In this document: piece after piece, positions 22,422 through 61,646 of the stretch
Layout: each line of letters begins with the position of its first letter
Numbering within the stretch: position 1 is the stretch's first letter
Assembly (NCBI GenBank): GCA_965228015.1
Contig: OZ245787.1
Span: 1,588,023-1,652,022, forward strand
Origin: Peptococcia bacterium
Lineage (GTDB): Bacteria > Bacillota > Peptococcia > Peptococcales > SKKY01
Length of the DNA: 64,000 nucleotides
Reading direction: 5' to 3'
Notes under the pieces: model-generated
The model's database searches: none
Told to the model about the DNA's origin: nothing
The model's input: the letters and a program-made list of their open reading frames with translations, nothing else
Made by a program: the position numbers and the translations under genes

Positions 22422-22795
22422 TGAAGATTATTTTAGTTGCCCTTGGCGGGAGTTTGGGTAGTTTAACCCGATTCAGGTTAGGGAAATTTTTTCTGGAAGA
22501 GGTTGGAATTCAATACCGATAGGAACCTTTTTTGTAAATATAACAGGAGCTTTTTTCTTGGCTTATTATCAGGTTTAGGTACAATAGGTACAGGTACAAG
22601 CGGGGACATATATATTTATAGATTTTTAGGAGATGGCTTTTTTGGAGCCTATACAACGTTTTCTACATTTATGTATGAAGGGTTCAATTTCTTTCAGGGA
22701 AAAAACAGTTAAACGCACTTGCTTACATAGGTTCAAGTATTATTTTAGAGATAATTGGTTTCACACTAGGTTTTTGGATTTCACCCTGTGGATAA
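22421..22795 (+). pseudogene. crcB: Fluoride ion channel CrcB (second of pair), frameshifted; its 3' end runs into the palindromic repeat
   Basis: MKIILVALGGSLGSLTRFRLG.., later ..GAYTTFSTFMYEG in other frames; the stop codon lies within the TGTGGATAA box at 22787-22795. Confidence 0.6.
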
Positions 22796-22817
22796 ATTGC
22801 ACTAAATAGAACTGGTC
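22784..22817. repeat. Half copy (right arm) of the DnaA-box palindromic repeat
   Basis: CCCTGTGGATAAATTGCACTAAATAGAAC, identical to the right arm of the copy at 26571-26600; the left arm is absent. Confidence 0.6.
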
Positions 22818-24115
22818 TGACCCCCAAAAATTACACAAAATTGGGACAGTAAGATATACTAATTTTGGGGGCTGATTTTAATGACAAAGAACTATTCTAA
22901 TGAATTTAAACTCTCTGTAATTAAGGAATATTACGAAAGCAATCTTGGGGCAAGAAAGATTACTGCAAAGTACAATTTATCTTCAAAAAATCTTGTTCTT
23001 AATTGGGAAAAACAATTAAAAGAAAAAGGACTTCTTCCAACAGAAGCTAAGAAAGATCCGGATAAGATAAAAATCAGATCAGATAAAATAGATTTTCCTG
23101 AGAAAACACAAAGAGAAATTGAATACGAAAAAGAAATAGAACATCTTTATGCTAAAATTGAATACTACGAACAATTAGAGCATTTACAGCCCTTTATTTC
23201 TAAAAAAACAAAAGTCAGGGAGCTAAAGTACAGAGCTATATTTGCTTTGGAATTTAAATATACAGTAAAATTTCTTTGCGAAATTGCTGGAGTAAAAAGA
23301 AAAGCCTATTGCAATTTCAGAGACAAACCAATAAAAAAAGAAGATTCCATTGAGAAAATAATTATTCAAATATATAACAAATCAAAAGGAATTTTTGGTT
23401 ACAGAAGAATAGGAAATGAGCTAAGAAATGCGTTTAAAATAGTTGTTAATCATAAAAAGATTCAAAGAATAATGCAGGAAAACAATCTCAGATCCAGAAT
23501 CAGAAGAAAAAAGAATAGGATTCAAGATGATAAACAATTCAAAGCCAATATATTAAACAGGGATTTTAAGGCAAGTCGCCCAGGAGAAAAAATAGCCACA
23601 GATATTACCTGTATTCCTTACAGAAACTCTAAGCTATATCTGTGTGTTGCCCTAGATCTGTTTAACAATGAGCCAGTAAGCTGGGAATACAGTAAGAATC
23701 CTGACAGCAAGCTGACTGTAAAAACTATTGAAAAACTTTCAAAAAAGATAGGTATTAAGAATACTGTTATCCATAGTGATCAAAGTGTTCAATACACAAG
23801 CAAAGAATATTCCAGCTATTTAAAGTCTTTAGGAGCAGTTCAAAGTATGTCCAGAAGAGGAAATTGCTGGGATAATGCGAAGATTGAAAGTTTCTTTAGC
23901 CATTACAAAACAGAAAGTATTAATCTCTACAAGAAAAGAATCAAAAGTTTTAAAGATATAAAAGAAATTACTGAAGATTACATTAAATTTTATATAAATG
24001 ACAGGACGCATAGAAACCTTGGAGGCGTCCCTCCAAGGTTTCTATAAACAGATTTTTTCATTTAATTAATTTGGTGAAATTTACTGTCCCAGAAGTGTAC
24101 CCTTTTTGGGGGTCA
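22818..24115 (+). mobile_element. IS3-family insertion sequence, dominant type, copy A
   Basis: IRs TGACCCCCAAAAATTACAC..TGGGACAGTAA / ..TTACTGTCCCAGAAGTGTACCCTTTTTGGGGGTCA (may extend 4-5 bp as TGGTC/CACCA); one of five near-identical copies. Confidence 0.85.
22881..24047 (+). CDS. IS3-family transposase, uninterrupted single ORF (388 aa)
   Basis: N-terminal HTH (NYSNEFKLSVIKEYYESNLGARKI), rve core ..ATDITCIPY.., HSDQSVQYTS, RRGNCWDNAKIESFF. Confidence 0.85.
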   Translation: MTKNYSNEFKLSVIKEYYESNLGARKITAKYNLSSKNLVLNWEKQLKEKGLLPTEAKKDPDKIKIRSDKIDFPEKTQREIEYEKEIEHLYAKIEYYEQLEHLQPFISKKTKVRELKYRAIFALEFKYTVKFLCEIAGVKRKAYCNFRDKPIKKEDSIEKIIIQIYNKSKGIFGYRRIGNELRNAFKIVVNHKKIQRIMQENNLRSRIRRKKNRIQDDKQFKANILNRDFKASRPGEKIATDITCIPYRNSKLYLCVALDLFNNEPVSWEYSKNPDSKLTVKTIEKLSKKIGIKNTVIHSDQSVQYTSKEYSSYLKSLGAVQSMSRRGNCWDNAKIESFFSHYKTESINLYKKRIKSFKDIKEITEDYIKFYINDRTHRNLGGVPPRFL

Positions 24116-24200
24116 CACCAAAGCGTCCCCTGCGGAGCTGATTTGCCTCTTTGTTTTTAATTTGTTTTATGTTATTATTTTTTAGATTGAAGGTGATATT

Positions 24201-26531: not shown

Positions 26532-26600
26532 GGGGAAGCTTCCATTTGGTGCAATTTATCCACAGCCTCAACCCTGTGGATAAATTGCACTAAATAGAAC
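26532..26600. repeat. DnaA-box palindromic repeat (full copy) abutting IS copy B
   Basis: GGGGAAGCTTCCATTTGGTGCAATTTATCCACAG cctcaac CCTGTGGATAAATTGCACTAAAT; perfect TTATCCACA at 26556-26564 and TGTGGATAA at 26575-26583. Confidence 0.7.
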
Positions 26601-26605
26601 TGGTC

Positions 26606-27902
26606 TGACCCCCAAAAATTACACAAAATTGGGACAGTAAGATATACTAATTTTGGGGGCTGATTTTAATGACAAAGAACTATTCTAATGAATTTAAACT
26701 CTCTGTAATTAAGGAATATTACGAAAGCAATCTTGGGGCAAGAAAGATTACTGCAAAGTACAATTTATCTTCAAAAAATCTTGTTCTTAATTGGGAAAAA
26801 CAATTAAAAGAAAAAGGACTTCTTCCAACAGAAGCTAAGAAAGATCCGGATAAGATAAAAATCAGATCAGATAAAATAGATTTTCCTGAGAAAACACAAA
26901 GAGAAATTGAATACGAAAAAGAAATAGAACATCTTTATGCTAAAATTGAATACTACGAACAATTAGAGCATTTACAGCCCTTTATTTCTAAAAAAACAAA
27001 AGTCAGGGAGCTAAAGTACAGAGCTATATTTGCTTTGGAATTTAAATATACAGTAAAATTTTTTTGCGAAATTGCTGGAGTAAAAAGAAAAGCCTATTGC
27101 AATTTCAGAGACAAACCAATAAAAAAAGAAGATCCCATTGAGAAAATAATTATTCAAATATATAACAAATCAAAAGGAATTTTTGGTTACAGAAGAATAG
27201 GAAATGAGCTAAGAAATGCATTTAAAATAGTTGTTAATCATAAAAAGATTCAAAGAATAATGCAGGAAAACAATCTCAGATCCAGAATCAGAAGAAAAAA
27301 GAATAGGATTCAAGATGATAAACAATTCAAAGCCAATATATTAAACAGGGATTTTAAGGCAAGTCGCCCAGGAGAAAAAATAGCCACAGATATTACCTGT
27401 ATTCCTTACAGAAACTCTAAGCTATATCTGTGTGTTGCCCTAGATCTGTTTAACAATAAACCGGTAAGCTGGGAATACAGTAAGAATCCTGACAGCAAGC
27501 TGACTGTAAAAACTATTGAAAAACTTTCAAAAAGATAGATATTAAGAATACTGTTATCCATAGCGATCAAGATGTTCAATACACAAGCAAAGAATATTCC
27601 AGCTATTTAAAGTCTTTAGGAGCAGTTCAAAGTATGTCCAGAAGAGGAAATTGCTGGGATAATGCGAAGATTGAAAGTTTCTTTAGCCATTACAAAACAG
27701 AAAGTATTAATCTCTACAAAAAAAGAATCAAAAGTTTTAAAGATATAAAAGAAATTACTGAAGATTACATTAAATTTTATATTAATGACAGGACGCAAAG
27801 AAGCCTTGGAGGTGTCCCTCCAAGGCTTCTATAAACAGATTTTTTCATTTAATTAATTTGGTGAAATTTACTGTCCCAGAAGTGTACCCTTTTTGGGGGT
27901 CA
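26606..27902 (+). mobile_element. IS3-family insertion sequence, dominant type, copy B
   Basis: Same IRs as copy A; splits prs from pth. Confidence 0.85.
26669..27834 (+). pseudogene. IS3-family transposase, frameshifted
   Basis: ORFs 26669-27538 and 27634-27834; the A run at 27529-27533 has 5 A where other copies have 6 (..KLSKKIDIK..). Confidence 0.8.
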
Positions 27903-27939
27903 CACCAAAGCGTCCCCTAAAAAATGAAAGGATCTTTTT

Positions 27940-35926: not shown

Positions 35927-36000
35927 GGGGATGTTTCTATTTTGATCGCGTTTTCCACAGGATAGCCCCTGTGGAAAACGCGATCAAAATAGAACTGGTC
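35927..36000. repeat. DnaA-box palindromic repeat (full copy) abutting IS copy C
   Basis: GGGGATGTTTCTATTTTGATCGCGTTTTCCACAG gatagcc CCTGTGGAAAACGCGATCAAAATAGAAC; boxes TTTTCCACA at 35951-35959 and TGTGGAAAA at 35970-35978. Confidence 0.7.
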
Positions 36001-37297
36001 TGACCCCCAAAAATTACACAAAATTGGGACAGTAAGATATACTAATCTTGGGGGCTGATTTTAATGACAAAGAACTATTCCGATGAATTTAAACTCTCTG
36101 TAATTAAGGAATATTACGAAAGCAATCTTGGGGTAAGAAAGATTACTGCAAAGTACAATTTATCTTCAAAAAATCTTGTTCTTAATTGGGAAAAACAATT
36201 AAAAGAAAAAGGACTTCTTCCAACAGAAGCTAAGAAAGATCCGGATAAGATAAAAATCAGATCAAATAAAATAGATTTTCCTGAGAAAACACAAAGAGAA
36301 ATTGAATACGAAAAAGAAATAGAACATCTTTATGCTAAAATTGAATACTACGAACAATTAGAGCATTTACAGCCCTTTATTTCTAAAAAAACAAAAGTCA
36401 GGGAGCTAAAGTACAGAGCTATATTTGCTTTGGAATTTAAATATACAGTAAAATTTCTTTGCGAAATTGCTGGAGTAAAAAGAAAAGCCTATTGCAATTT
36501 CAGAGACAAACCAATAAAAAAAGAAGATTCCATTGAGAAAATAATTATTCAAATATATAACAAATCAAAAGGAATTTTTGGTTACAGAAGAATAGGAAAT
36601 GAGCTAAGAAATGCGTTTAAAATAGTTGTTAATCATAAAAAGATTCAAAGAATAATGCAGGAAAACAATCTCAGATCCAGAATCAGAAGAAAAAAGAATA
36701 GGATTCAAGATGATAAACAATTCAAAGCCAATATATTAAACAGGGATTTTAAGGCAAGTCGCCCAGGAGAAAAAATAGCCACAGATATTACCTGTATTCC
36801 TTACAGAAGCTCTAAGCTATATCTGTGTGTTGCCCTAGATCTGTTTAACAATGAGCCAGTAAGCTGGGAATACAGTAAGAATCCTGACAGCAAGCTGACT
36901 GTAAAAACTATTGAAAAACTTTCAAAAAAGATAGATATTAAGAATACTGTTATCCATAGCGATCAAGGTGTTCAATACACAAGCAAAGAATATTCCAGCT
37001 ATTTAAAGTCTTTAGGAGCAGTTCAAAGTATGTCCAGAAGAGGAAATTGCTGGAATAATGCGAAGATTGAAAGTTTCTTTAGCCATTACAAAACAGAAAG
37101 TATTAATCTCTACAAGAAAAGAATCAAAAGTTTTAAAGATATAAAAGAAATTACTGAAGATTACATTAAATTTTATATAAATGACAGGACGCAAAGAAAC
37201 CTTGGAGGTGTCCCTCCAAGGTTCTATAAACAGATTTTTTCATTTAATTAATTTGGTGAAATTTACTGTCCCAGAAGTGTACCCTTTTTGGGGGTCA
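36001..37297 (+). mobile_element. IS3-family insertion sequence, dominant type, copy C
   Basis: Same IRs; lies between hup and the S4-domain gene. Confidence 0.85.
36064..37251 (+). CDS. IS3-family transposase, uninterrupted ORF (395 aa)
   Basis: Full-length with HSDQGVQYTS and RRGNCWNNAKIESFF. A 1-nt difference near the 3' end lengthens the tail relative to copy A. Confidence 0.85.
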   Translation: MTKNYSDEFKLSVIKEYYESNLGVRKITAKYNLSSKNLVLNWEKQLKEKGLLPTEAKKDPDKIKIRSNKIDFPEKTQREIEYEKEIEHLYAKIEYYEQLEHLQPFISKKTKVRELKYRAIFALEFKYTVKFLCEIAGVKRKAYCNFRDKPIKKEDSIEKIIIQIYNKSKGIFGYRRIGNELRNAFKIVVNHKKIQRIMQENNLRSRIRRKKNRIQDDKQFKANILNRDFKASRPGEKIATDITCIPYRSSKLYLCVALDLFNNEPVSWEYSKNPDSKLTVKTIEKLSKKIDIKNTVIHSDQGVQYTSKEYSSYLKSLGAVQSMSRRGNCWNNAKIESFFSHYKTESINLYKKRIKSFKDIKEITEDYIKFYINDRTQRNLGGVPPRFYKQIFSFN

Positions 37298-37329
37298 CAC
37301 CAAAGCGTCCCCTGAAGGAGGTGGGCGGC

Positions 37330-40633: not shown

Positions 40634-40707
40634 CCTGAATTTATTCTAGAGAAAGCAGAATGAATTAAAGTTAAATTATTGTTATTTTTATGTTAAGGGG
40701 AATTAAG

Positions 40708-42417
40708 ATGTACAAAGCAGTAGAAAAAATTATCCGCAGAAAATGGGACACGTCCCTTGGAATGAAAAGGGGAAACGGTTGCGAACACGGAAACATCCCC
40801 AGCGCAAGTGATGCAAGCGGGGACACTTCTAGAGATGTGAAAATTTCCAGAGTTGAGGGAAGTTCCCCCCCACCCGTTATCATTTTAGGCCTTTCAGGTG
40901 GTCCCGATTCCATGGCCCTTTTCCATATATTAAATAAATTAAGGGAAAAATATTCCTTTAAACTTGTTGCGGCTCACGTGAACCACATGTTCCGGGGAGA
41001 AGAGGCGGATGAGGAAGAAGCCTATCTGCAAAAAATGGTTAAAGAACTTGTCTCTCAGTCAGATGCCGGCTTGACCATTGAAACTCTTCGAGTGGATGTA
41101 AAGAAAATCGCTCAGGAAAGAAAACTTTCTAATCAGGATGCCGGACATCAGGTGCGGAAAGAATTTTTTCAGATGCTTAGTAAAAAATATGATGCAGATT
41201 ATGTTTTTCTCGCTCATCATCAAGATGACCGGGTTGAGAGTTTTTTTCTTCATCTTCTTCATGGCGCCGGAGTTCAGGGCTTAACGGCTCTTTCGAAAGT
41301 GGAGAATTACGGTGAAGATGGAAGCGGGTTGAAAGTAATCAGGCCATTAATAGGATTTTCCAAGGATGAGATTCTTAAATTTTGCCAGGAGCAGGGGATT
41401 TTCTATTTCAAAGATCCCAGCAATGAAAAGGCTTTGTACAATAGGAATAAAATTCGCTTGGAACTGATACCCCAGCTGGAGCAAGAATATAATCCGAAGA
41501 TTAAGGATGTAATTCTTCGCAGTGTGGAGATTCTTGAAGACGAAGATGCTTTTTTGAATGATGTAGTTCAGGAAAAGTACCAAGAGCTTGTTCGGGAGAA
41601 TTTTTCAGAGGAAGTGGCGCTGCTACTTTTAGATAAGAAAGAATTCCAAAAATTTCATAAAGGAATCCAACAGCGCCTTGTGATAAAGATTTTAAATAAA
41701 TTAGCTCCAGGAGAAGTCGGATATAACTTTGAAAAGATTGAAAAAATCCTGGAGCTTTTAAATGAAGAAAAAGGGCAGCGAAGGTACAAACTTTCCCACA
41801 ACTCCTGGCTGGAAGTGGGCTACGAGGAAGGAAAGTTTGTGCTGTATCCTCAACGGGAATCAGCTGAAAATGTCGAGGATGCAGGAAGCCATTTCGATTT
41901 TGACGTGGACATCGAAATGGACATCCACGTCGATGTCCATTTCGATAAAATCGAAATGGAAGGCCCCCTCACCTTTCAGGCCGGGGGCCAAAGCTTCACC
42001 TTCGCTGCTGTCGCAGCTGGGACGCTTCCATTCTCAGCGGGTTTTTCACATCCCCAACCTTGTGGAAAACCCGCGGAAAAAAGAAGCGTCCCAGCTTCCG
42101 CGCTGATTTTTGCTCCGGGGAAGCTTACCCTCCGCACCCGTCGGGATGGGGATGTCATTAAACCCGCCGGGGGGAAGACTAAAAAGCTGAAGAAATTTTT
42201 TATGGAGAAAAAAATTCTTCAAAATGAGCGGGACAAGATCATCCTCCTGGCCTCCGGCAAGGAAATCATCTGGATCCCCAACATGGTCATCTCCCAAAAC
42301 TATCTTCCGGAAAATCCTGCAGATTGTGTCTCTAATAAAAACAATCTTGAACAGAGTGGAAAAAAAATGTTAAAAGTCTTCTGGAGGGGGAAAGAGAGTT
42401 TGAAAAATAGCCCCTGA
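40708..42417 (+). CDS. tilS: tRNA(Ile)-lysidine synthetase with repeat-derived insertions
   Basis: PP-loop LSGGPDSMAL, HHQDDRVESF, C-terminal RTRRDGDVIKPAGG..KKLKKFF; about 100 aa longer than usual because of inserts at about 40745-40875 and 41880-42140. Confidence 0.85.
   Translation: MYKAVEKIIRRKWDTSLGMKRGNGCEHGNIPSASDASGDTSRDVKISRVEGSSPPPVIILGLSGGPDSMALFHILNKLREKYSFKLVAAHVNHMFRGEEADEEEAYLQKMVKELVSQSDAGLTIETLRVDVKKIAQERKLSNQDAGHQVRKEFFQMLSKKYDADYVFLAHHQDDRVESFFLHLLHGAGVQGLTALSKVENYGEDGSGLKVIRPLIGFSKDEILKFCQEQGIFYFKDPSNEKALYNRNKIRLELIPQLEQEYNPKIKDVILRSVEILEDEDAFLNDVVQEKYQELVRENFSEEVALLLLDKKEFQKFHKGIQQRLVIKILNKLAPGEVGYNFEKIEKILELLNEEKGQRRYKLSHNSWLEVGYEEGKFVLYPQRESAENVEDAGSHFDFDVDIEMDIHVDVHFDKIEMEGPLTFQAGGQSFTFAAVAAGTLPFSAGFSHPQPCGKPAEKRSVPASALIFAPGKLTLRTRRDGDVIKPAGGKTKKLKKFFMEKKILQNERDKIILLASGKEIIWIPNMVISQNYLPENPADCVSNKNNLEQSGKKMLKVFWRGKESLKNSP
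42019..42092. repeat. IS-free copy of the DnaA-box palindromic repeat, inside the tilS ORF
   Basis: GGGACGCTTCC attctca GCGGGTTTTTCACA tccccaac CTTGTGGAAAACCCGC ggaaaaaa GAAGCGTCCC; outer 10-bp and inner stems pair. Confidence 0.7.
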
Positions 42418-44948: not shown

Positions 44949-44979
44949 AAAAGACCGCTGATTAGGGGACAGTTTGGTG

Positions 44980-46277
44980 TGACCCCCAAAAAGGGTACAC
45001 TTCTGGGACAGTAAATTTCACCAAATTAATTAAATGAAAAAATCTGTTTATAGAAGCCTTGGAGGGACACCTCCAAGGCTTCTTTGCGTCCTGTCATTAA
45101 TATAAAATTTAATGTAATCTTCAGTAATTTCTTTTATATCTTTAAAACTTTTGATTCTTTTCTTGTAGAGATTAATACTTTCTGTTTTGTAATGGCTAAA
45201 GAAACTTTCAATCTTCGCATTATCCCAGCAATTTCCTCTTCTGGACATACTTTAAACTGCTCCTAAAGACTTTAAATAGCTGGAATATTCTTTGCTTGTG
45301 TATTGAACACCTTGATCACTATGGATAACAGTATTCTTAATATCTATCTTTTTTGAAAGTTTTTCAATAGTTTTTACAGTCAGCTTGCTGTCAGGATTCT
45401 TACTGTATTCCCAGCTTACCGGTTTATTGTTAAACAGATCTAGGGCAACACACAGATATAGCTTAGAGTTTCTGTAAGGAATACAGGTAATATCTGTGGC
45501 TATTTTTTCTCCTGGGCGACTTGCCTTAAAATCCCTGTTTAATATATTGGCTTTGAATTGTTTATCATCTTGAATCCTATTCTTTTTTCTTCTGATTCTG
45601 GATCTGAGATTGTTTTCCTGCATTATTCTTTGAATCTTTTTATGATTAACAACTATTTTAAACGCATTTCTTAGCTCATTTCCTATTCTTCTGTAACCAA
45701 AAATTCCTTTTGATTTGTTATATATTTGAATAATTATTTTCTCAATGGAATCTTCTTTTTTTATTGGTTTGTCTCTGAAATTGCAATAGGCTTTTCTTTT
45801 TACTCCAGCAATTTCGCAAAGAAATTTTACTGTATATTTAAATTCCAAAGCAAATATAGCTCTGTACTTTAGCTCCCTGACTTTTGTTTTTTTAGAAATA
45901 AAGGGCTGTAAATGCTCTAATTGTTCGTAGTATTCAATTTTAGCATAAAGATGTTCTATTTCTTTTTCGTATTCAATTTCTCTTTGTGTTTTCTCAGGAA
46001 AATCTATTTTATCTGATCTGATTTTTATCTTATCCGGATCTTTCTTAGCTTCTGTTGGAAGAAGTCCTTTTTCTTTTAATTGTTTTTCCCAATTAAGAAC
46101 AAGATTTTTTGAAGATAAATTGTACTTTGCAGCAATCTTTCTTACCCCAAGATTGCTTTCGTAATATTCCTTAATTACAGAGAGTTTAAATTCATCGGAA
46201 TAGTTCTTTGTCATTAAAATCAGCCCCCAAGATTAGTATATCTTACTGTCCCAATTTTGTGTAATTTTTGGGGGTCA
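44980..46277 (-). mobile_element. IS3-family insertion sequence, dominant type, copy D (inverted)
   Basis: Same IRs; same transposase lesions as copy E (shared nonsense codon and NKPVSW variant); palindromic repeat on its left-end (inner) side. Confidence 0.85.
45048..46214 (-). pseudogene. IS3-family transposase with nonsense codon
   Basis: ..SLGAV*SMSRRGNCWDNA: TAA replaces the CAA of other copies; ORFs 45252-46214 and 45048-45248. Confidence 0.8.
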
Positions 46278-46349
46278 GACCAGTTCTATTTAGTGCGGGC
46301 TATCCACAAGAGTTACCCTGTGGATAGCCCGCTGATTTTGGAAGCGTCC
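46278..46349. repeat. DnaA-box palindromic repeat (mirror image of 53461-53531), with a 9-bp duplication at its outer end
   Basis: GTGCGGGCTATCCACAAGAGTTACCCTGTGGATAGCCCGCTGATTTTGGAAGCGTCC; boxes at 46300-46308 and 46319-46327. GAAGCGTCC (46341-46349) is repeated at 49551-49559. Confidence 0.7.
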
Positions 46350-46511
46350 GTTAGTGTAAAATAATTATGGGTAAAAAAACAAAAAAATATTAGAGCAACT
46401 CCTTATGTTACAATTAAATCGCTAAACCAAATCGCAAAAAAGGAGAAACTCTAATGAATAATAGGGGGGTGCGGACAAAAACCTGGACTAAAAATACAGG
46501 AGGATGTCCAT

Positions 46512-47288
46512 ATGTATTCCTACGAAGAAAAAATTAAAGCTGTAAAATTATTAATTAAATATGACAAATGTTATGCACAAGTAATGCGGGAGTTAGGATA
46601 CCTAGATAGAAAATCCCTAACGGCGTGGTACAAACAATATTTAAGTAATGGTGACTTAATTAAAGAATGTGAAAGAAAAGCAAAATTTTCTGAAGAAGAA
46701 AAATACAGAGCTGTTAATCATTATTTAGAACACGGAAAATGTGTACGACGCACTACAAGAATTCTTGGATATCCAAGCAGACCTACTCTTGATAAATGGA
46801 TACTAGAATTGGTGCCTGAACAAAAGAAATATTGTCGCTCAGGTAACGCATTGATAAAATATACTCGTGAACAAAAAGAAGCAGCAGTTATAGCTTTATG
46901 CTCACGGGAAAAATCGGCCAGAGAAGTAGCGAATGAAATTGGCATTACCTGTGAGAGGCTTTATAGTTGGAAAAATCAGCTTCTAAAAAAAGGGTGGAAT
47001 AGGACAATGCCAAAAAAAGATAAAGTATCCCCAAAAGTGAAAACTAATATTAGTGATGATCAAGCAAAATTATTATTAAAAGAAAAAGATGTTCTTTTAA
47101 AACAAGTGGAAGAATTAAAAAAGGATATATATCATCTTCAGTTAAAAAGAGATATTTTGGAAAAAGCAGCAGAAATAATAAAAAAAGATAAGGGCATTAG
47201 CATAAAAACACTTTCTAATAGTGAAAAAGCCATGGCGATTAATGCCCTAAGAGAGAATTTTTTTAAAAGATTTATTGATAATTCTTAA
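46512..47288 (+). CDS. IS3-family transposase, N-terminal part (HTH and leucine zipper)
   Basis: 258 aa; two HTH-like segments, coiled coil ..LLKQVEELKKDIYHLQLKRDILEKAAEIIKK. Confidence 0.75.
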   Translation: MYSYEEKIKAVKLLIKYDKCYAQVMRELGYLDRKSLTAWYKQYLSNGDLIKECERKAKFSEEEKYRAVNHYLEHGKCVRRTTRILGYPSRPTLDKWILELVPEQKKYCRSGNALIKYTREQKEAAVIALCSREKSAREVANEIGITCERLYSWKNQLLKKGWNRTMPKKDKVSPKVKTNISDDQAKLLLKEKDVLLKQVEELKKDIYHLQLKRDILEKAAEIIKKDKGISIKTLSNSEKAMAINALRENFFKRFIDNS

Positions 47289-48084
47289 CATGGCAAAAAG
47301 TAGCTATTTTTATCAGGATTTTGTATTAAGTAAAGAAGATAAATATTCCAGTTTACGTAATAAAATTAAAGAAGTTTTTATTGAATCTTCAAAACGTTAT
47401 GGTTATCGAAGAATTCATTCAGTTATAAAGAAAACCGGTATAATTATTTCAGAAAAAATTGTTAGAAGAATTATGAAAGAAGAGAAACTTTCAATACCAG
47501 GCATTAAGAAAAAGAAATACAACTCATATAAAGGTGAGATAAGCCCTGTAATGCCAAATTTGTTGAAACACAATTTTCATGCTGATAAACCAAACCAGAA
47601 GTGGCTAACAGATCTAACCGAGTTCCATATTCCTGCCGGGAAAATATATCTTTCTCCAATTATTGACTGCTTTGATGGGCTGCCAGTCAGTTGGAGTATT
47701 GGAACCTCTCCTGATGCCACATTGGTAAATACAATGTTAGACAAAGCCATCAGCACTTTAAATAAAAATGAAAGACCTATAGTACATACAGATCGTGGAG
47801 CACACTATCGTTGGCCTGGCTGGATTGAGAGAATGAAAAAAGCTCATCTTGTTCGTTCTATGTCAAAGAAAGGTTATTCTCCAGATAATTCTGCATGCGA
47901 GGGTTTCTTTGGCAGAGTAAAAAACGAAATGTTTTATGGATATTCATGGAAAGAAGTCACAATAAAACAATTTATTGAAATATTAGATGAATATTTAAGG
48001 TGGTATGCAGAAAAAAGAATTAAAATTTCCTTTGGGGGAATGAGTCCATTGACTTATAGAAAAAGCTTAGGTTTAATTGCTTAG
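47275..48084 (+). CDS. IS3-family transposase, catalytic part (rve/DDE)
   Basis: ..WLTDLTEF.., HTDRGAHY, YSPDNSACEGFFGRVKNE. It lies in the +1 frame relative to the upstream part and would fuse if the T7 run 47258-47264 were T6. Confidence 0.75.
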   Translation: MIILNMAKSSYFYQDFVLSKEDKYSSLRNKIKEVFIESSKRYGYRRIHSVIKKTGIIISEKIVRRIMKEEKLSIPGIKKKKYNSYKGEISPVMPNLLKHNFHADKPNQKWLTDLTEFHIPAGKIYLSPIIDCFDGLPVSWSIGTSPDATLVNTMLDKAISTLNKNERPIVHTDRGAHYRWPGWIERMKKAHLVRSMSKKGYSPDNSACEGFFGRVKNEMFYGYSWKEVTIKQFIEILDEYLRWYAEKRIKISFGGMSPLTYRKSLGLIA

Positions 48085-48108
48085 GTCCAAAAAAACGTCC
48101 ACACCCCC

Positions 48109-49489
48109 ATATTATACATGAAATTGCAACTAAAATCAGTAAAGAAATAGCAGAAAATATGGAAACAACTTTAATTGAGGGAAATAATATATCTGAATTC
48201 ATTTTAAAAACCAAAAAAATGCTGGATGAAGTTGGGGTTGCAATTACAGAAAAAGTACTTGAAACTGTAGATATTTTAGTTAAAAAAGATTGTGCAAGAA
48301 AAAGAGACTGGAAAATAAAGGAAACAAAGTCGAAGAAAAGTTTGGCGACGATATTTGGTGAAGTAACCTATAAAAGAACGTATTATGTTTATAAAATTAC
48401 CGGTGAATATAAATACTTATCTGATGAAGCTGTTGGTATTGAAGCAAATGACAGAATGGATATATTGCTAGAATCAATGTTAATAGAAGAAGCAATAGAG
48501 ATACCATACAGAAAAAGTAGCGAAAAAATATCGAAGAATGTATATCTTACTAGTCAAACAGTAATGAATTCTATTAGAAAGCTTAAAGATATTTCTAATC
48601 ATGCAGCACCAGTGAAAAAAACTGATTCTCAAGCTAAGATTTTGTACATCGAAGCTGATGAAGATCATGTTTCACTTCAAAGAGGAACATGTGCCGAACC
48701 TAGATTAATTTATGTTCACGAAGGTAAGTGAAAGGTAAGTAAAGATAGATATGAATTAATAAATCCCAGATACTTTAGTGGTCTCTACCAAGATAGTGCT
48801 GATTTATGGCTTGAAGTAGCTGATTATATTGATAGCAACTATGAAGAAGAAACTATCGAAAAGATATATTTATCAGGAGATGGAGCCAACTGGATAAAAC
48901 AAGGCAAAGAATGGATTAAAGATAGTATCTATGTTTTAGATAGATACTATTTGTCGAAATATATAAAGAAGGCAACTGCTCATATGAAAGGCACACACCA
49001 AATGATGTGGTATTACATAAATACGAAAAGGAAAGATTTCGTAAAAGATTTATTCAAAGCAATAATTGAAGAAACAGAATCAGAAACAAAAAATAGAAGC
49101 AATAAAAGATGCTAGAAGTTATGTGTTAAATAATTGGGAAGGTATAATGAATCAATATGACCCGGATTATATAGGCTGTAGCACAGTAGGCCATATTAGT
49201 CATATATTATCTGCAAGATTAAGTTCAAGGCCTCTAAGCTGGTGCAGAGAAGGTGTTGATCAAATGTCACGTCTGAGGGCTTTTAAGGCTAATTCAGGTA
49301 ATGTATATGATTTAGTAAAAGAAAGAAGCAAGAAAAACAGAAACAAGAATCATAAAATTAGAAAGCCGTGTTATAAAAAAAGCTACGAACCTAATATCAG
49401 ATGAGAAATTCGGTAATGTGCCAGTAGTTTTAATTGGCAAGAGAACTTGGAAAAGAGAATTATTTAAAAGGATAGCGAGTGCGATTTAG
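48109..49489 (+). pseudogene. ISLre2-family transposase, main part (first three codons at 46454-46463); nonsense plus frameshifts
   Basis: ..RKRDWKIKETKSKKSLATIFGEVTYKRTYY..; in-frame TGA at 48730 (..VHEGK*KVSKDRYELINPRYF); frame changes near 49090 and at the A7 run 49375-49381. Confidence 0.7.
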
Positions 49490-49566
49490 CACGTAATACA
49501 TACAAGGAGTTTTTTTATTCTTTTAAAACCCATAATTAATTGACACGATCGAAGCGTCCCCTCCGC

Positions 49567-49594
49567 TTGATTACCTGAAAAAAAATGGTATAAT
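49567..49594 (+). promoter_or_regulatory. Putative sigma-A promoter of prfA-prmC
   Basis: TTGATT (49567-49572), 16-nt spacer, TGgTATAAT extended -10 (49589-49594 hexamer). The -10 sits in the loop of hairpin ACCTGAAAAAA/TTTTTTCAGGT. Confidence 0.5.
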
Positions 49595-49644
49595 TTTTTC
49601 AGGTAAATTTAATATATTTTAATTATTAAGGTGGAATTTATAAA

Positions 49645-50721
49645 ATGTTTGACAGACTGGAAGCAATTGAAAAGAAATATGATGAACTGAATGAGTTGAT
49701 GAGCGACATAAACGTCATTAACAACCACAGCGAGCTGCAAAAATATGCCAGGGCCCAATCCGCCCTGTCCGATACAGTAAACGCTTACCGCGCATATAAA
49801 AAAGTAATCGAAAGCCTTCAAGAATCTAAAGAAATGCTTAAAGACAAACTGGATCCTGACATGAAGGAAATGGTGGAGATGGAAATCGAAGAGCTTGCCG
49901 AGAAGAAAAAAGTTCTCGAGGAAGAGTTGAAGATCCTTCTTCTCCCCAAAGATCCTAACGACGAGAAGAACGTTGTTATGGAAATCCGCGCCGGCGCCGG
50001 CGGCGACGAGGCTAGCCTCTTCGCCGCCCATGTTTTCCGCATGTACTCCCGTTACGCGGAAAACATGGGCTGGAAAGTTGAGATCCTGAACACCAGCTGG
50101 ACCGGCGTGGACGGAATCAAGGAAGTCAGCTTCCTCATCTCCGGCAACAAAGTTTACAGCTTCTTAAAATATGAAAGCGGCGTGCACAGAGTTCAACGTG
50201 TTCCCGACACAGAATCCCAGGGACGTATCCACACCTCCACAGCAACAGTTGCAGTTTTACCAGAAGCTGAAGATGTTGAAGTGAAAATCGAAGCCAACGA
50301 CATCCGCGTGGATGTGTTCTGCTCCAGCGGCCCGGGTGGACAATCTGTAAACACAACCCAGTCCGCAGTCCGCATCACCCACATTCCCACAGGCATCAGC
50401 GTATCCTGTCAGGATGAAAAATCTCAGCACAAAAACAAAGACAAAGCTATGAAAGTTCTTCGCGCCCGCCTTTTTGAAAAAGCTCAGGAAGAAGCCGCTG
50501 GAGAAATGGCCTCAGCCCGCAAGAGCCAGGTAGGCACAGGAGACCGCAGCGAGCGCATCCGCACCTATAACTATCCTCAAGGTAGAATGACGGATCACAG
50601 AATCGGCCTCACCCTCCACAAGCTGGACAACATCCTCCTTGGAGATCTTGATGAAGTAGTCAACGCCCTGATCACCTACGATCAGGCTGAAAAATTAAAG
50701 GACGCAGGTAAAAATGACTGA
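49645..50721 (+). CDS. prfA: Peptide chain release factor 1
   Basis: 358 aa; PEAEDVEV.., [14 protein letters not shown] motif. Confidence 0.95.
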
Positions 50722-51715
50722 TAAAAAGGTTTCATCCATCCTCCGGGAAATTGGTGGCGACAACCAAGGCCTCACTCAGGATGAGATTAACGACCTCCGC
50801 TACATTCTGGCCCACATTTTGGACACAGAAAAAGCCCGACTTATACTTTACACGGACCGGGAGCTCACAGATAGTCAGTTTCAGCAATGGCAGGACGCCC
50901 GCATTAAGCTGATTCAGCAAAAAATCCCCGTTCACTACATTATAAATACAAAAAACTTTATGGGATTAGACTTTTTCGTCGACGAGAGGGTGTTGATCCC
51001 TCGTTTTGATACAGAAATTTTGGTGGAACAAGCCATGTTGGAGATAAAAAAGCTAAGGGATCTCGAAGAATTTTCTGAAGATTCCCTAGTCAGGGATATA
51101 GATAGGAAGATCAGAGTTCTAGAGCTTTGCACTGGAAGCGGTGCTATTCCAATAAGTTTGATTCATTACCTTGCAAATGATTCTGCCGACAAACCTATGC
51201 CGGGTATCCAAATTATGCCTTTAGAAATTACGGCTATAGACATCAGTCAAGATGCCCTTGATGTTGCAGATGTTAATAAGAAGAAACTTTTGTCTCCCGG
51301 GGAGCAAAAGCAGCTAAAGTTCATCCACAGCGATCTTTTTGAAAACGTCCCCCGACGGAACTCTCATCCGGAATCTCAATCGAGTCCGGATGAGAGTTTT
51401 TCTTCCGGCACTGGCTATCATCTAATTATCGCCAATCCCCCTTACGTGATTCACCAGGAGTACGAGGCTCTGGATGAAAAAGTAAAAAAAGAACCCTTCG
51501 GCGCTCTTGTCGCCGAAGAGGATGGACTTTTTTTCTACGAAAAAATCCTCTCCCAGGCCCGGGACTATCTACATCCGGACCAGGGTGTAATCCTATTCGA
51601 AATAGGAAGCCTGCAAGGCCCCGCCCTGCAGGCAATGACTGCCGCCAATGGCTACCAGGAGTGCACCATCATTCCCGACTACGCAGGGCACCCCCGGGTA
51701 GCCATAATACGCTGA
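50714..51715 (+). CDS. prmC: Release-factor glutamine N5-methyltransferase with an extra palindrome-encoded segment
   Basis: 333 aa; [13 protein letters not shown] motif, IIANPPYV catalytic motif; about 20 extra residues [20 protein letters not shown] just before NPPY. Confidence 0.85.
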
Positions 51716-51729
51716 TTCTGGGACGTTTC

Positions 51730-53460
51730 GAGACCAGTGAAAAAGTCTTTCTTTAAAAGAAGATTCTTCCCTTTTCAGCAAAATAAGACTATTTTTTTAA
51801 ATTCCAAATTTGATTTAAAAAATTGCACTCTAAAGAGGATAGTATTGATGCTATCCTCTTTATGTTTACCGCAATTGCTGCCAGCTTCGATTGAACAGAC
51901 ACACTTAAGAGACCATATCCTCTTGCACGACATAGTCCGTGAAATCTTTTTAGCTCGGCATTCTTGCCTTCAATGCTTGCTCTCTTCTTGTACTTTTCTT
52001 TAAACTCTTCCGTTTTTTGTTCTTAAGATATTTCATAATATTCTCCAGTATTTAAACCAGTTGTGAAAATTTCTCGTGCTTTTTTACCAGCACATTGATC
52101 ATGCTTTGGGCAATTTTTACACTGCTTTGCTTCAAAATAATAATTGTAATATCCATAGCCTAAAGAATAAAATGTTTCTTTCCTTTTAAAATATCTCTTT
52201 TTTACACTTATGTTTCCTTGGCTACATTCCCATTCGTCCGAATCTTTGTTGTATGAAAATCCATTTTCATCAATTCTGTAAGCTGACCCACTTGCTGGAA
52301 TAAAGGCTTTTGCTTTTAATTCCTTTATTGAATCTAAAATGTTTTTTCTGAAATAAGCTTTGTCTCCATATACTTCTTTTACAGAAACTCCTGCTTTTAT
52401 GGTCTCTTCAAGCATTTCCTCTGTTAAATCTCCATCAGTATATACCCCATCTCCGGTTCTAACGCAGGTAATTAATCTTTCTTCTGTAGTCATAATAAAT
52501 TCTGTTTTATAGCCAAAAAAGTCTTGGCTTTTACTTTTTCTGCCAACACGAGCATCTTCATCTATTAATGAACGTACTCCTTTTTGATTTATGAACTTGG
52601 GATCATTTAATATATTTTTAGCTTTTTCAATAATAGAATTGGTTTTGAGTAGCTCTGTATTTTTTCTGCTTCATAGATTACTTTTTCTAAGTAATCTATC
52701 ATTACTGCTTTTGCTTCTTTATGGTCTTCAATCTCCTTGTACTCTGGAACATCAGGAAGACCGGGTAGTTTTTCTTCTGTTTCTTCTTCATATGTATTTA
52801 TAATTTTTTAGCAAGATGTTTCGTTAATCTTTCCGGGGTTTTTATTGTATTGGCTTCTATATGTGTAGCACCAATACTTACACTATTTCCTTCAATAATT
52901 TTTTGTTCAACACATTGGCGAATAATTTCTGTAATAATTTCATCTAATGTGGAGTTTTGAAGTCTTTGGGTTCTGAATTTTGAGAGGAGACTTTTATCTG
53001 GGAGGGATTCTTCGGGATTGATTCCTAAAAAATACATATATGCTAAATTAAGTTCTGCTTCCTGTATAACCTTTTCGTCAGAAAGGTTATACAGGAAGCT
53101 GCAGGAAAAGAAGTTTACACATTAATTCTGGTTCTTTGGCTGGTCTGCCAAAAGTTTTGCAGTAGCTGTTTTTCCAATAATTTATTAATAAAGCTGAAAT
53201 TTACTACAGATTCTATTCTTTTTAATATATGATTTTCAGGTATTTTATTATATAATTGTAAATATAAAGAAATTTGCTTTGATTTTAATCTAAGCATAAA
53301 AAGCCCACCATTTTGGTTTATTTTGTTTTGGTAGATAAATTATACCATAAAAAGGTGGGCTTTTTTCTGTTTTCTTAGATATATCAACGCTTTCAGCTTT
53401 TTTAGTATAAAAATTTGTCCTTCACCTTTAACTTAAAGAAAGGCTTTTTCACTGGTCTCG
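51730..53460 (-). mobile_element. IS1182/IS5-like element, heavily degenerate
   Basis: IRs CGAGACCAGTGAAAAAGTCTTTCTTTAA / TTAAAGAAAGGCTTTTTCACTGGTCTCG. Flanks are inverted copies of a CGCTGATT..GGACG motif, so the true IRs may be longer. Confidence 0.65.
52023..53297 (-). pseudogene. IS1182-family (DUF772 N-terminal, DDE) transposase fragments
   Basis: Fragments 53115-53297 (..LYNKIPENHILKRIESVVNFSFI), 52798-53037, 52023-52493 (..YGDKAYF.., Cys-rich ..KQCKNCPKHDQC); the C-terminal part downstream is also broken. Confidence 0.65.
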
Positions 53461-53531
53461 GACGCTTCCAAAATCAGCGGGCTATCCACAGGGTAACTCT
53501 TGTGGATAGCCCGCACTAAATAGAACTGGTC
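53461..53531. repeat. DnaA-box palindromic repeat abutting IS copy E
   Basis: GACGCTTCCAAAATCAGCGGGCTATCCACAG ggtaactc TTGTGGATAGCCCGCACTAAATAGAAC; boxes at 53482-53490 and 53501-53509. Confidence 0.7.
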
Positions 53532-54829
53532 TGACCCCCAAAAATTACACAAAATTGGGACAGTAAGATATACTAATCTTGGGGGCTGATTTTAATGACA
53601 AAGAACTATTCCGATGAATTTAAACTCTCTGTAATTAAGGAATATTACGAAAGCAATCTTGGGGTAAGAAAGATTGCTGCAAAGTACAATTTATCTTCAA
53701 AAAATCTTGTTCTTAATTGGGAAAAACAATTAAAAGAAAAAGGACTTCTTCCAACAGAAGCTAAGAAAGATCCGGATAAGATAAAAATCAGATCAGATAA
53801 AATAGATTTTCCTGAGAAAACACAAAGAGAAATTGAATACGAAAAAGAAATAGAACATCTTTATGCTAAAATTGAATACTACGAACAATTAGAGCATTTA
53901 CAGCCCTTTATTTCTAAAAAAACAAAAGTCAGGGAGCTAAAGTACAGAGCTATATTTGCTTTGGAATTTAAATATACAGTAAAATTTCTTTGCGAAATTG
54001 CTGGAGTAAAAAGAAAAGCCTATTGCAATTTCAGAGACAAACCAATAAAAAAAGAAGATTCCATTGAGAAAATAATTATTCAAATATATAACAAATCAAA
54101 AGGAATTTTTGGTTACAGAAGAATAGGAAATGAGCTAAGAAATGCGTTTAAAATAGTTGTTAATCATAAAAAGATTCAAAGAATAATGCAGGAAAACAAT
54201 CTCAGATCCAGAATCAGAAGAAAAAAGAATAGGATTCAAGATGATAAACAATTCAAAGCCAATATATTAAACAGGGATTTTAAGGCAAGTCGCCCAGGAG
54301 AAAAAATAGCCACAGATATTACCTGTATTCCTTACAGAAACTCTAAGCTATATCTGTGTGTTGCCCTAGATCTGTTTAACAATAAACCGGTAAGCTGGGA
54401 ATACAGTAAGAATCCTGACAGCAAGCTGACTGTAAAAACTATTGAAAAACTTTCAAAAAAGATAGATATTAAGAATACTGTTATCCATAGTGATCAAGGT
54501 GTTCAATACACAAGCAAAGAATATTCCAGCTATTTAAAGTCTTTAGGAGCAGTTTAAAGTATGTCCAGAAGAGGAAATTGCTGGGATAATGCGAAGATTG
54601 AAAGTTTCTTTAGCCATTACAAAACAGAAAGTATTAATCTCTACAAGAAAAGAATCAAAAGTTTTAAAGATATAAAAGAAATTACTGAAGATTACATTAA
54701 ATTTTATATTAATGACAGGACGCAAAGAAGCCTTGGAGGTGTCCCTCCAAGGCTTCTATAAACAGATTTTTTCATTTAATTAATTTGGTGAAATTTACTG
54801 TCCCAGAAGTGTACCCTTTTTGGGGGTCA
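53532..54829 (+). mobile_element. IS3-family insertion sequence, dominant type, copy E
   Basis: Same IRs; identical ORF translations and the same nonsense codon as copy D. Confidence 0.85.
53595..54761 (+). pseudogene. IS3-family transposase with nonsense codon
   Basis: TAA at 54555-54557 in place of CAA; ORFs 53595-54557 and 54561-54761. Confidence 0.8.
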
Positions 54830-54922
54830 CACCAAAGCGTCCCCTCCGCTTTGCAAAAAATTTACATTAATTAATTTGCCTTGTATAGTCTTAATTGATA
54901 AAATATCCGAGTAAATTTAATT

Positions 54923-60259: not shown

Positions 60260-61646
60260 GGTTCTTTGTCAAATGTTGGGGTAACCCAATTAGATTAGAT
60301 TCCATAAGTACCGCATTGAAAAATGCGGTACTTTTTTAAATTGTTTTTAGTTCATTACGTGCATTATTCTGTTTTTGAATCTCCAAAAATTTCTTACACC
60401 ATAAGCATTTCTTTTTAAAACCTTAATTTTGTTGTTAATTCCTTCTGTATATCCGTTAGTATAAGTACAAGTAAATGAATTAAGAATATATTTCTGCCAG
60501 TTGAAAATGGTTCTGGAGCATTTATCGAATTCTTCAAGCTCACAGGACATAACAAACATATACCAGGCTTTCAAATTCTTTTTTGCACTTTCTAAATCAC
60601 TGCTGTCAACAAAGTTATAAAATTTTTCTTTTAACATATAAGCTTTTTGCAGTTTCTCAGAAGTAGCAAGCATAACATTTACCTGGTCAATTTCTTCAGG
60701 AGTTAAATACTTCATTCTTTTTAAGAGAAGGGAGCGACTTCTTTTGAAATATCTTCGCCTTTCCTTGGCAAATTTCTTTTGCTCATCTTTCCTAATTCTT
60801 TCAAATGCCTAAGTGACCTGCCTAATGAAATGGAATTTATCGATAATGATAGTTGCATTTTTAAAATATGTTTCAGCAATATCCTTGTAAGGTTGCCACA
60901 TATCCATAATGAAGTATTTTACTTTATCCCTGTCATTGAATTTCCTGAAATAGTCCGATAAAATGTGTTGTTCTCTTCCGTGAAGAATATCAAGCACCTT
61001 CTTGTTTTGGGGATCAGTTAATATGCACTGGTACTTTTTTACCCCCGGCATTACCTTTAAATTCATCAATAGAGATTACTTCGGGCAATTTTGTTAGGGA
61101 ATAGTTTATGAATCTAAAAAGCCTGAGAGCCGTTGATGGTGAAATATTATTCTCTTTGGCAATATCAGATACAGAGTAAACATTTTTCATTCGAGTAATT
61201 ATGTATTTTATCAGCCTGCTGGTCATTCTTTGATAGCGGGGGAGAAAATCATTTTTTTCGTAGAATTTTTTATTGCAGTGATTACAAACGTACCTTCTTT
61301 TTTTGTAGTAAAGGTAGGTTTTCTTCCCTGAGATGGAAATATCTTTTATCATTTGAATTCTGTAATCATGAACTTTACTGGTTTGTTGATGGCATTTGGG
61401 GTAATTGTGAGTTTTAATCTCCAGAGAAAAAGAAAAGGACGTTGAATCAGAAGAAGTTTCTAATTGTTCTAAAATTATCCCTTTAAAACCAATTAATTTT
61501 TTAATATAATAGTTATTACAGAGCATAAGTAAATTCCTCCTTAGATTACAATGGGTGTTCTCTAATATGGATTTACCAATGCTCTGTATTTTTTCGCAAA
61601 TAAATGTCAGAATGGTTTTTACCACCCCAACATTTATTGTAGAACC
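60260..61646 (-). mobile_element. ISL3-family insertion sequence, copy 2 (inverted relative to copy 1)
   Basis: Same IRs and length (1387 bp) as 10771-12157. Confidence 0.85.
60347..61625 (-). pseudogene. ISL3 transposase with one frameshift and one nonsense codon
   Basis: The T run 61035-61040 corresponds to A6 where copy 1 has A5; TGG to TAG at about 60809 (..FIRQVT*). Both differ from the copy 1 lesion. Confidence 0.8.

Follow-up and report, generated by a model that had tools for sequence, protein, structure and literature searches.

Introduction

IS1397, ISKpn1 and ISPsy8 are IS3-family insertion sequences (IS) that insert specifically into repeated extragenic palindromes (REP, also called palindromic units), and REP targeting has been reported for five IS families, namely IS3, IS110, IS4, IS256 and IS5 (Tobes & Pareja 2006, PMC1525189). 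Here we describe what appears to be an element of this kind in a 64,000-nt stretch of the genome of a Peptococcia bacterium (contig OZ245787.1), hereafter the window, whose positions serve as coordinates throughout. Two identical, inverted and dead copies of the element, IS-D and IS-E (D and E for short), lie in two REP-like palindromes that flank the prfA-prmC operon, and we consider the arrangement largely explained in these terms. The identity of the two copies most likely comes from recombination between copies.

The element resembles IS1397, ISKpn1 and ISPsy8 in three respects: (i) it encodes an IS3-family DDE transposase with an HTH_Tnp_1 N-terminus; (ii) nearly every copy occupies one position and one orientation of a repeated extragenic palindrome; and (iii) removing the element together with one copy of a short duplication rebuilds the palindrome. 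As at the REP sites reviewed in PMC1525189, other IS families have hit the same repeats, here as ISLre2- and IS1182-like relics. Unlike the three described elements, it resides in a low-GC, Clostridia-class host and not in a proteobacterium, and its transposase is encoded by a single fused open reading frame (ORF) instead of orfA and orfB joined by a frameshift. IS1397 inserts in the palindrome loop, whereas the target here is the outer core of a 76-80-nt double palindrome.

For the palindromes themselves the comparison system is that of REP and REPIN elements with their REP-associated tyrosine transposases (RAYT; PMC2817692, PMC3333891, PMC3116915). Like these, they are short and GC-rich in an AT-rich genome, exist in many variants with compensatory stem changes and are found singly and in doublets, for the most part directly behind genes; in a relative, palindromes of the same core flank a RAYT-like gene. 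Unlike them, they come without a detectable RAYT in the window, and several members are in frame within coding genes.

As pairs of inverted repeats, D and E can be set beside the inverted 1.2-kb tuf genes of Salmonella, which undergo conversion once per 1e5-1e6 generations (PMC5485169). In both cases repeats of about 1.2-1.4 kb stand inverted on one chromosome and are kept identical or nearly so by RecA-type conversion (putative for D and E), and the same substrate can invert. The repeats described here differ in being selfish, dead and 7.1 kb apart, in having an identity that reaches the edge of homology (rarely reached in the tuf model) and in being known from sequence alone. Two inverted copies of one IS around a gene-carrying segment also recall Tn5 and Tn10, but here the arms contain no functional transposase, no duplication flanks the whole, the cargo is native and each arm has its own insertion site.

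The arrangement is ordinary mobile-DNA biology and overturns nothing in current understanding. It offers a small, clean case of REPs as landing pads for several IS families, in a Clostridia-class host where such repeats are little described; it shows that identical IS defects can spread by recombination and need not mark descent; and, with 1.4 kb of perfect inverted repeat on either side of an essential operon, it marks a definite site at which inversion heterogeneity may be sought. Beyond that, interest lies in the spread of defects and flanks by recombination, in the REP family of this lineage and in the palindromes that are in frame.

Two identical, inactive copies in inverted orientation

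A repeat finder applied to the window returned inverted arms at 44964-46350 and 53459-54845. Base-by-base comparison found them to be exact reverse complements over one run of 1,378 nt (44973-46350 against 54836-53459), followed by 2 mismatches (44971-44972) and 7 more matches. The arms are separated by 7,108 nt, and each contains one copy of the element:

44975-46282, minus strand: IS-D, a 1,308-bp IS3-family insertion sequence, its right terminal repeat outer (toward ndk) and its left inner (toward the palindrome)
45252-46214, minus strand: truncated transposase ORF of IS-D, 320 aa, with HTH_Tnp_1, HTH_21 and rve domains and a TAA before catalytic E336
45048-45248, minus strand: 66-aa C-terminal remnant of the IS-D transposase (rve_3), severed by the stop codon
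53527-54834, plus strand: IS-E, 1,308 bp, identical to IS-D
53595-54557 and 54561-54761, plus strand: IS-E ORFs of 320 aa (ending at the TAA stop) and 66 aa

The terminal repeats are imperfect, inverted and begin TGGTCTGACCCCCAAAAA and TGGTGTGACCCCCAAAAA. A first-pass annotation of the window, made from its letters, had described D and E as identical, defective and inverted copies sharing a CAA-to-TAA nonsense codon, and had named nucleotide differences elsewhere between them as what would speak against a recent common origin. We found none over the 1,378 nt, and the stop is where it had been placed, after codon 320 in both copies (45252-45254 on the reverse strand and 54555-54557; IS position 1029). 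The proposed element boundaries were approximately right, falling 5 nt short at each end; an NKPVSW variant cited as common to the pair is real in both, but the copy at 26601 carries it too.

Because its product ends at residue 320, before the glutamate E336 of the DD(35)E triad, the element is catalytically dead in both D and E and could move only in trans. In our view the pair has no cellular function. D and E do not differ from each other at any site, whereas other pairs of copies differ at 12-19 of the 1,308 sites and independent REP flanks are 67-84% identical; the lack of a single difference over 1,378 nt thus cannot be chance. That D and E are each other's closest relatives is supported by the aligned copies.

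Four further copies of the element lie in the window:

22813-24120, plus strand: sister copy with a full-length 388-aa transposase, beside a half REP
26601-27907, plus strand: sister copy with a frameshift and a 289-aa ORF, in a full REP (26532-26600) whose stem is unlike that at D and E
35996-37302, plus strand: sister copy, ORF of 395 aa, inserted into a full REP (35927-35995) whose stem is different again
20673-21978, minus strand: older degenerate relative, about 80% identical, beside a half REP (21979-22006) and a REP core (20663-20672)

The 388-aa (22881-24047) and 395-aa (36064-37251) ORFs had been called intact at first pass, and both are indeed full length. Against the NCBIfam IS3-family model NF033516, the 388-aa product scored 293.7 bits (cut-off 160). 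Its catalytic triad is D241, D300 and E336, that is DD(35)E, and its Pfam domains are HTH_Tnp_1, HTH_21 and rve. The element runs from TGGTCTGACC to GGTCACACCA, with 5'-TG and CA-3' ends and 40-nt terminal repeats that match at 78%, and its length falls in the range of the IS3 family (about 1.2-1.6 kb).

Separate, overlapping orfA and orfB with a programmed -1 frameshift were not found in the full-length copies, each of which has one continuous ORF of 388-395 aa with an in-frame A7 run at the usual IS3 frameshift site. This A7 site was located at 23193-23214 and occupies the same position in every close copy; the older copy at 20673-21978 has six A. Relatives in other organisms encode two proteins, of 115 aa and 273 aa. 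Since the older copy has one A fewer and relatives elsewhere encode separate proteins, the single fused orfAB is a derived variant. A constitutively fused transposase might account both for the local burst of copies and for the many knock-out alleles (stop-321, stop-304 and frameshifts).

The flanking palindromes as target sites

What is the sequence that D and E share beyond their ends? The first-pass annotation had pointed to an identical inner flank of about 70 bp with a palindrome, and to outer flanks that differ. The inner flank (46283-46350 against 53459-53526) contains a 14-bp perfect stem and is a REP/REPIN-like palindrome with the core GGGGACGCTT...AAGCGTCCCC. The outer flanks differ only in part, the first 11 nt outside each copy being the same REP-core remnant with 2 differences (AACTGTCCCCT against AAGCGTCCCCT). 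The relevant features are:

46283-46349, minus strand: D palindrome, made up in turn of linker, 14-bp stem GCGGGCTATCCACA, loop, return stem, further linker and core GGAAGCGTCC
53460-53526, plus strand: E palindrome, exact reverse complement of 46283-46349, its first 9 nt GGACGCTTC
44964-44974, minus strand: REP core remnant outside IS-D, AACTGTCCCCT; its first 3 nt, AAC, repeat the 3 nt across IS-D, a perfect target duplication
54835-54852, plus strand: REP core remnant outside IS-E, AAGCGTCCCCTCCGCTT; the adjoining AAG faces AAC across IS-E, without a clean duplication
42016-42095, plus strand: IS-free REP member with the intact target ...GGAAAAAAGAAGCGTCCCA

When the six window copies were aligned with their flanks, every one had its left end toward the hairpin and its right end on the core, while the stems differed between sites. 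The left-end side carries the conserved boxes GGGGAnGCTTCC ... CCACAGG, a loop and CCTGTGG, with variable stems; the right-end side carries the complement of the palindrome's outer box, as AAGCGTCCCC or in a closely similar form. The consensus fold of five members is a 25-pair hairpin in which 8 pairs show compensatory (two-sided) changes, and single-strand DNA folds gave z-scores of -6.9 to -10.1. A covariance-model scan recovered six REP members in the window and more in related loci, and some members lie inside ORFs. One further match of this model, in prfA (50009-50078), was discarded as conserved RF1 coding sequence and not a repeat.

Eleven copies of the element were available in all: six in the window, one from a metagenome and four from elsewhere in the genome (F, G, H and I), the last four recovered via exact-protein look-ups. 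A REP core adjoins the right end in 10 of the 11, and a hairpin half adjoins the left end in 9. Copy F lies inside a full REP, a REP core stands to the right of copy G, whose left end is rearranged, and copy H sits in a half REP within a copA-like gene. Copy I, in cheW, is the exception outside a REP, with only AAGCGTC at its right. The metagenome copy, the sole useful relative from the metagenome scan (92% transposase identity), is inserted at the equivalent position in a different REP.

Element bodies differ by about 1%, their flanks by 16-33% with compensatory stem changes, and IS-free members exist. This marks the flanking palindrome as target DNA lying outside the element proper; the identical inner flank of D and E is accordingly the targeted palindrome, and as such no evidence of a segmental duplication. 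Judging from the 11 copies, the element is a REP-targeting member of the IS3 family.

Perfect 3-bp target duplications are found at D (AAC), F (AAG), H (AAG) and the 20673 copy (AAA); among the remaining copies the duplication has a one-base mismatch in five and is absent in one. From these four perfect duplications we place insertion at a fixed point, the AAG of the outer core (...GAAG/CGTCCCC, with the slash at the junction), where it would generate a 3-bp duplication. Two other models were dropped. In one, the duplication would be 2 bp long with an additional base on its 5' side; in the other, 12 nt of flank would travel with the element. Against them stand the flank of the 35996 copy, which belongs natively to the palindrome around it, and the clean AAG duplications of F and H.

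We detected no RAYT gene in the window. In one relative (locus L001), a RAYT-like ORF lies between two palindromes with the core GGGGACGTTTCC and scores 70.3 bits, below the NCBIfam cut-off of 80.

The shared stop allele and exchange between copies

From the shared defect it had been concluded at first pass that one copy derives from the other after inactivation. The shared defect does not support this conclusion, because the stop is not confined to the pair. A protein search and cluster listing gave at least six distinct 320-aa products on one 1.9-Mb contig (P0001, P0018, which is that of D and E, P0019, P0027, P0028 and P0029), together with two 303-aa products of a second nonsense allele (P0022 and P0025) on the same contig. 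Over the 289 residues compared, P0028 equals the full-length 22813 copy and P0029 equals the read-through product P0024 at every variable site, the full-length ones having glutamine at 321. Compared as DNA, copy G and the 22813 copy are four sites apart, the stop being one of the four. Three sites separate copy F from D and E; F bears the stop, shows a perfect AAG duplication and lies within a different REP. Thus, with the stop on at least six backgrounds, two of them matching Gln-321 copies at every compared site, the TAA-321 allele is family-wide and not a private marker of D/E descent.

How could one allele reach so many backgrounds? The 22813 and 26601 copies are 100% identical along a tract that runs from the REP loop to IS position 461 (22786-23273 and 26574-27061), and all 17 differences between them fall downstream (P ~4e-4). 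In addition, every one of the four possible combinations of alleles is present at IS positions 52 and 858, a pattern impossible for a tree that lacks recombination. Copies of the element in this genome clearly exchange sequence, and flanking REP sequence can be included.

Stop-bearing copies also interrupt genes, one a copA-like gene and another cheW. At 20663-24130, on a 0.8-kb scale, the older copy (minus strand) and the full-length copy (plus strand) bracket two crcB-like ORFs with half palindromes facing inward, the second ORF ending within its half palindrome; this inverted architecture is like that of D and E.

Origin of the D/E identity

What, then, made D and E identical? In the reading we favour, homologous recombination between the two inverted units produced the 1,378-bp identity, which comprises the element and 67-68 nt of palindrome. 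The mode would be gene conversion or templated copying, with D's unit as donor and E's site as recipient, and neither movement of a 7-kb block nor a shared stop codon would be needed. We give such copying from D to E, in its cause as in its direction, an even chance of being correct. Evidence for the direction comes from the duplications of D and E themselves and from those of two unrelated elements that have split the palindromes:

46350-49550, plus strand: IS-X, a degenerate ISLre2-family (UPF0236) element inserted in D's REP core, with a perfect 9-bp duplication GAAGCGTCC (46341-46349 and 49551-49559)
49551-49568, plus strand: rest of D's REP core past IS-X, GAAGCGTCCCCTCCGCTT, directly upstream of the prfA promoter
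51710-51729, plus strand: outer part of E's REP, split off by IS-Z; holds the far copy of the IS-Z duplication, GGACGTTTC (51721-51729)
51730-53459, minus strand: IS-Z, a degenerate IS1182-family element with 27-bp terminal repeats GAGACCAGTGAAAAAGYCTTTCTTTAA

At D both duplications are perfect, its own (AAC/AAC) and that of IS-X (9/9). At E both are broken, its own (AAC/AAG) and that of IS-Z (8/9), the far copy GGACGTTTC and the near copy GGACGCTTC (53460-53468) being 1 nt different; in each case the base at odds falls within the shared tract and is the one found at D. Since the duplications are intact at D and broken at E by a D-like base in the shared tract, D would be the donor and E the recipient, which suggests that the tract is native at D and foreign at E. 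The D/E identity stops where REP homology stops, and for inverted repeats of 1.2 kb conversion is well documented (PMC5485169).

A more far-reaching version of this copying is conceivable, though we think it improbable. A dead IS would be copied to a second site without any transposase: an occupied, near-symmetrical REPIN would pair with an empty one in either orientation and template the unit "palindrome centre plus IS" by gene conversion or template switching, so that REP families would act as a homology highway for inactive elements and for alleles such as stop-321. Linked to this is the idea that the widespread 320-aa product, which has the DNA-binding domains but not the catalytic glutamate, is maintained because it restrains a hyperactive fused transposase in dominant-negative fashion.

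Several points weigh against copying from D to E. Each of the four duplication-based tests of direction is a single nucleotide, and three more copies (22813, 26601 and 35996) share E's AAC/AAG pattern; the base in question may come from a wider process and not from D specifically. Conversion tracts between the Salmonella tuf genes have a mean length of ~500 nt; heterology blocks them, and they abort where homology ends (PMC5485169). By that analogy it would be unusual for one tract to cover at least 880 nt of element plus 60 nt of palindrome and to stop no more than 5 nt short of the homology edge, and the two palindromes would have to have been very similar beforehand. Copy F, so close to D and E and yet cleanly inserted in a different REP, keeps transposition alive as the main rival, and stop-bearing copies have probably transposed recently. 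The left arm of F's REP is also nearly identical to that of D and E; this palindrome type recurs, and identical sister palindromes are conceivable.

It is therefore possible, though to our minds doubtful, that E or D arose by transposition in trans, an origin also envisaged in the first-pass annotation. A dead, stop-bearing copy would have been pasted by the transposase of a full-length copy (e.g. 22813 or 35996) into a neighbouring palindrome of the same sequence, the identity of the elements reflecting recency and that of the flanks the presence of sister REPINs. The element is strongly REP-specific, and the nearest REP of the same type would be the expected second target; two full-length ORFs lie within 22 kb. 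With copy F standing 3 nt from D and E, with the stop and a perfect duplication, dead copies do appear mobile, and the left arm of its REP shows 2 differences from D and E over the shared arm, so the subtype recurs. D's perfect AAC duplication would also suit a fresh insertion. Set against this, independent REPs of the window are 67-70% identical over the stretch in question, and a match of 67/67 would need luck or a master-copy population; moreover the D and E REPs differ at 2/11 nt on the core side and at 0/67 on the hairpin side. The footprints fit poorly whichever copy is taken as the new one. As the new copy, E should show a clean duplication but has AAC/AAG; were D the new copy, it could not be the source of the D-type base beside four other copies, so that neither direction explains both duplication patterns without an extra conversion step. 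IS3-family transposases, finally, prefer to act in cis. Mobilisation in trans thus survives as a possibility through copy F, and the duplication footprints fit copying from D to E better.

Inversion of the bracketed segment

Whatever its origin, a 1.4-kb perfect inverted repeat would be a substrate for RecA-mediated inversion of prfA-prmC with its promoter. The first-pass annotation had proposed that recombination between D and E could invert the segment relative to the likely direction of replication. This stands, given a repeat of 1,378 nt at 100% identity and a GC skew that is positive on the plus strand; the operon is at present co-directional with its neighbours and with this skew.

Has the segment already been inverted, one or more times, by crossing-over in the repeat? 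If so, the original palindrome halves would now stand at different copies, an outcome compatible with copying from D to E as well as with transposition in trans. The flank outside E, AAGCGTCCCCTCCGCTT, is exactly complementary to the inner flank that D had before IS-X arrived (49552-49568; 17 nt), and the flank outside D pairs with the inner flank that E had before the arrival of IS-Z (CGCTGATT...GGGAC). Palindromes rebuilt with the halves swapped fold at -40.7 and -29.8 kcal/mol, against -27.3 and -23.3 kcal/mol unswapped (about 20 kcal/mol in total), and in other REPs complementarity past the core extends over only 1-4 nt. The flank motifs are, however, recurrent modules of the family (CGCTGATTnnGGGAC occurs 4 times and GCGGAGGGGA 3 times), and for this reason the swapped-halves energies were set aside as proof of an inversion. 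In the IS-free sequence at 42101-42135 the two module types occur once each on a single strand, exactly as they now do at both D and E; ndk and prfA are co-oriented in the closest relative as in the window; and the operon runs with its neighbours and with the GC skew. Taken together, these observations make a past inversion rather unlikely.

Small contigs of a separate European Nucleotide Archive (ENA) assembly, ERZ25074352, probably from the same strain as the window, were considered as a test of inversion. They have the parental junctions throughout, but all are fold-back or chimeric joins broken at non-repeat positions, some with noisy ends, and we give them no weight either way. The assembly comprises thousands of small contigs with named depths of 2x-102x that are piecewise 100% identical to the strain (loci L081-L090 and L093-L098). 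Their joins are fold-backs or fall at arbitrary positions, as is typical of chimeric long reads, and could mislead searches for structural variants.

A second inverted pair surrounds D, E and all other features discussed here. Two ISL3-family copies (10771-12157 and 60260-61646), 99% identical and with both ORFs broken, bracket 48 kb. Swapped duplications, as a sign of inversion of these 48 kb, were not clearly visible in the flanks of the ISL3 pair, which are uninformative in this regard.

Remaining alternatives

Movement of the palindrome and the inner element as one REPIN- or MITE-like (miniature inverted-repeat transposable element) unit, by a RAYT or with a surrogate IS end, would account for an identity that spans palindrome plus element and stops at the natural end of the palindrome, and a RAYT-like gene is present in a relative. 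We consider such movement very unlikely: the far core differs between D and E at two adjacent bases against 1,378 identical nt, the unit has no flanking duplication, a RAYT went undetected in the window, and known REPINs are far smaller than a 1.3-kb cargo.

An artefact that homogenised two similar copies during assembly or polishing is still less probable. Multi-mapped reads can homogenise repeats in polishing, but the other copies remain 12-19 nt apart, the 67 nt of identical flank occurs only at D and E, and contigs of the separate assembly ERZ25074352 are 100% identical across ndk-D-IS-X and IS-Z-E-lytR.

A true composite transposon, in which D and E carried prfA-prmC to the locus as a unit, has the inverted identical IS copies around a 7.1-kb segment in its favour, a formal architecture to which the first-pass annotation had drawn attention, but it is effectively refuted and has next to no chance of being correct: both transposase genes are truncated before E336 and no active IS flanks the segment; the outer plus-strand triplets are GTT and AAG, with no direct repeat around the unit; REP remnants on both sides of each copy mark separate insertion sites; and the cargo, an essential housekeeping operon plus relics of other insertion sequences, is native, ndk and prfA being neighbours in the same orientation in the closest available relative.

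The ndk-prfA-prmC locus

The bracketed segment and its operon contain the following further features:

46455-48118, plus strand: IS-Y, a second, unrelated IS3-family element nested in IS-X, with orfA at 46512-47288 and orfB at 47275-48084
49567-49594, plus strand: prfA promoter-like site, strong by sequence (TTGATT, 16-nt spacer, TG-extended TATAAT)
49645-50721, plus strand: prfA, peptide chain release factor 1 (PCRF and RF-1 domains)
50714-51715, plus strand: prmC (HemK), with its stop codon among the opening bases of the REP that follows (CGCTGATT...)

That D and E bracket prfA-prmC with its promoter was correctly seen at first pass and takes the form of a long perfect inverted repeat; the 7.2 kb so bracketed had been credited with two dead IS elements, where there are three (IS-X, the nested IS-Y and IS-Z). 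On the plus strand the order is ndk, core, IS-D, palindrome, IS-X (with IS-Y), core, promoter, prfA, prmC, REP part, IS-Z, palindrome, IS-E, core and lytR-like genes. Without the IS elements, one palindrome would stand between ndk and the prfA promoter and one between prmC and lytR.

The closest relative found is a metagenome-assembled genome of a Clostridia member from soda-lake sediment, with 85% PrfA identity, in which ndk and prfA are linked and in the same orientation; the synteny comparison proposed at first pass thus shows this linkage and orientation to be kept. We regard the ndk-to-lytR region as a native locus of housekeeping genes, into whose two REP-like palindromes five IS copies have made their way, and not as an island or a transposon. 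In the relative (L001), the 6.3-kb gap between ndk and prfA is occupied by genes for an ECF (extracytoplasmic function) sigma factor, a SIMPL protein and a helicase and by the one RAYT-like gene between its two palindromes (1478-1544, 2457-3296 and 4423-4462); in the window's genome the interval consists of REP and IS material only.

IS-X and IS-Z, which are unrelated, each duplicated the same 9-mer of the REP core (GGACGCTTC), one in the palindrome of D and the other in that of E. As an ISLre2-like and an IS1182-like element have hit the same 9-mer, the core looks like a hot spot for several IS families.

The -10 box of the prfA promoter lies within an 11-bp inverted repeat (49573-49603; ACCTGAAAAAA ... 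TTTTTTCAGGT), which could be an operator or attenuator-like.

Palindromes also occur in frame within essential genes of the window. The tilS ORF (40690-42417) contains two, at 41889-41959 and 42016-42135; an intact member of the REP family is joined there by a 71-nt palindrome that folds as DNA at -26.7 kcal/mol (z -8.0), and the two encode SHFDFDVDIEMDIHVDVHFDKIEME and AAGTLPFSAGFSHPQPCGKPAEKRSVPA between the PP-loop and C-terminal domains. In prmC, a core-like GAAAACGTCCCC and a 14-bp perfect stem (51336-51412) stand in frame just before the NPPY motif, and the protein is some 50 residues longer than solved HemK over the palindrome stretch. These in-frame palindromes in tilS and prmC are reminiscent of the palindromic elements of Rickettsia.

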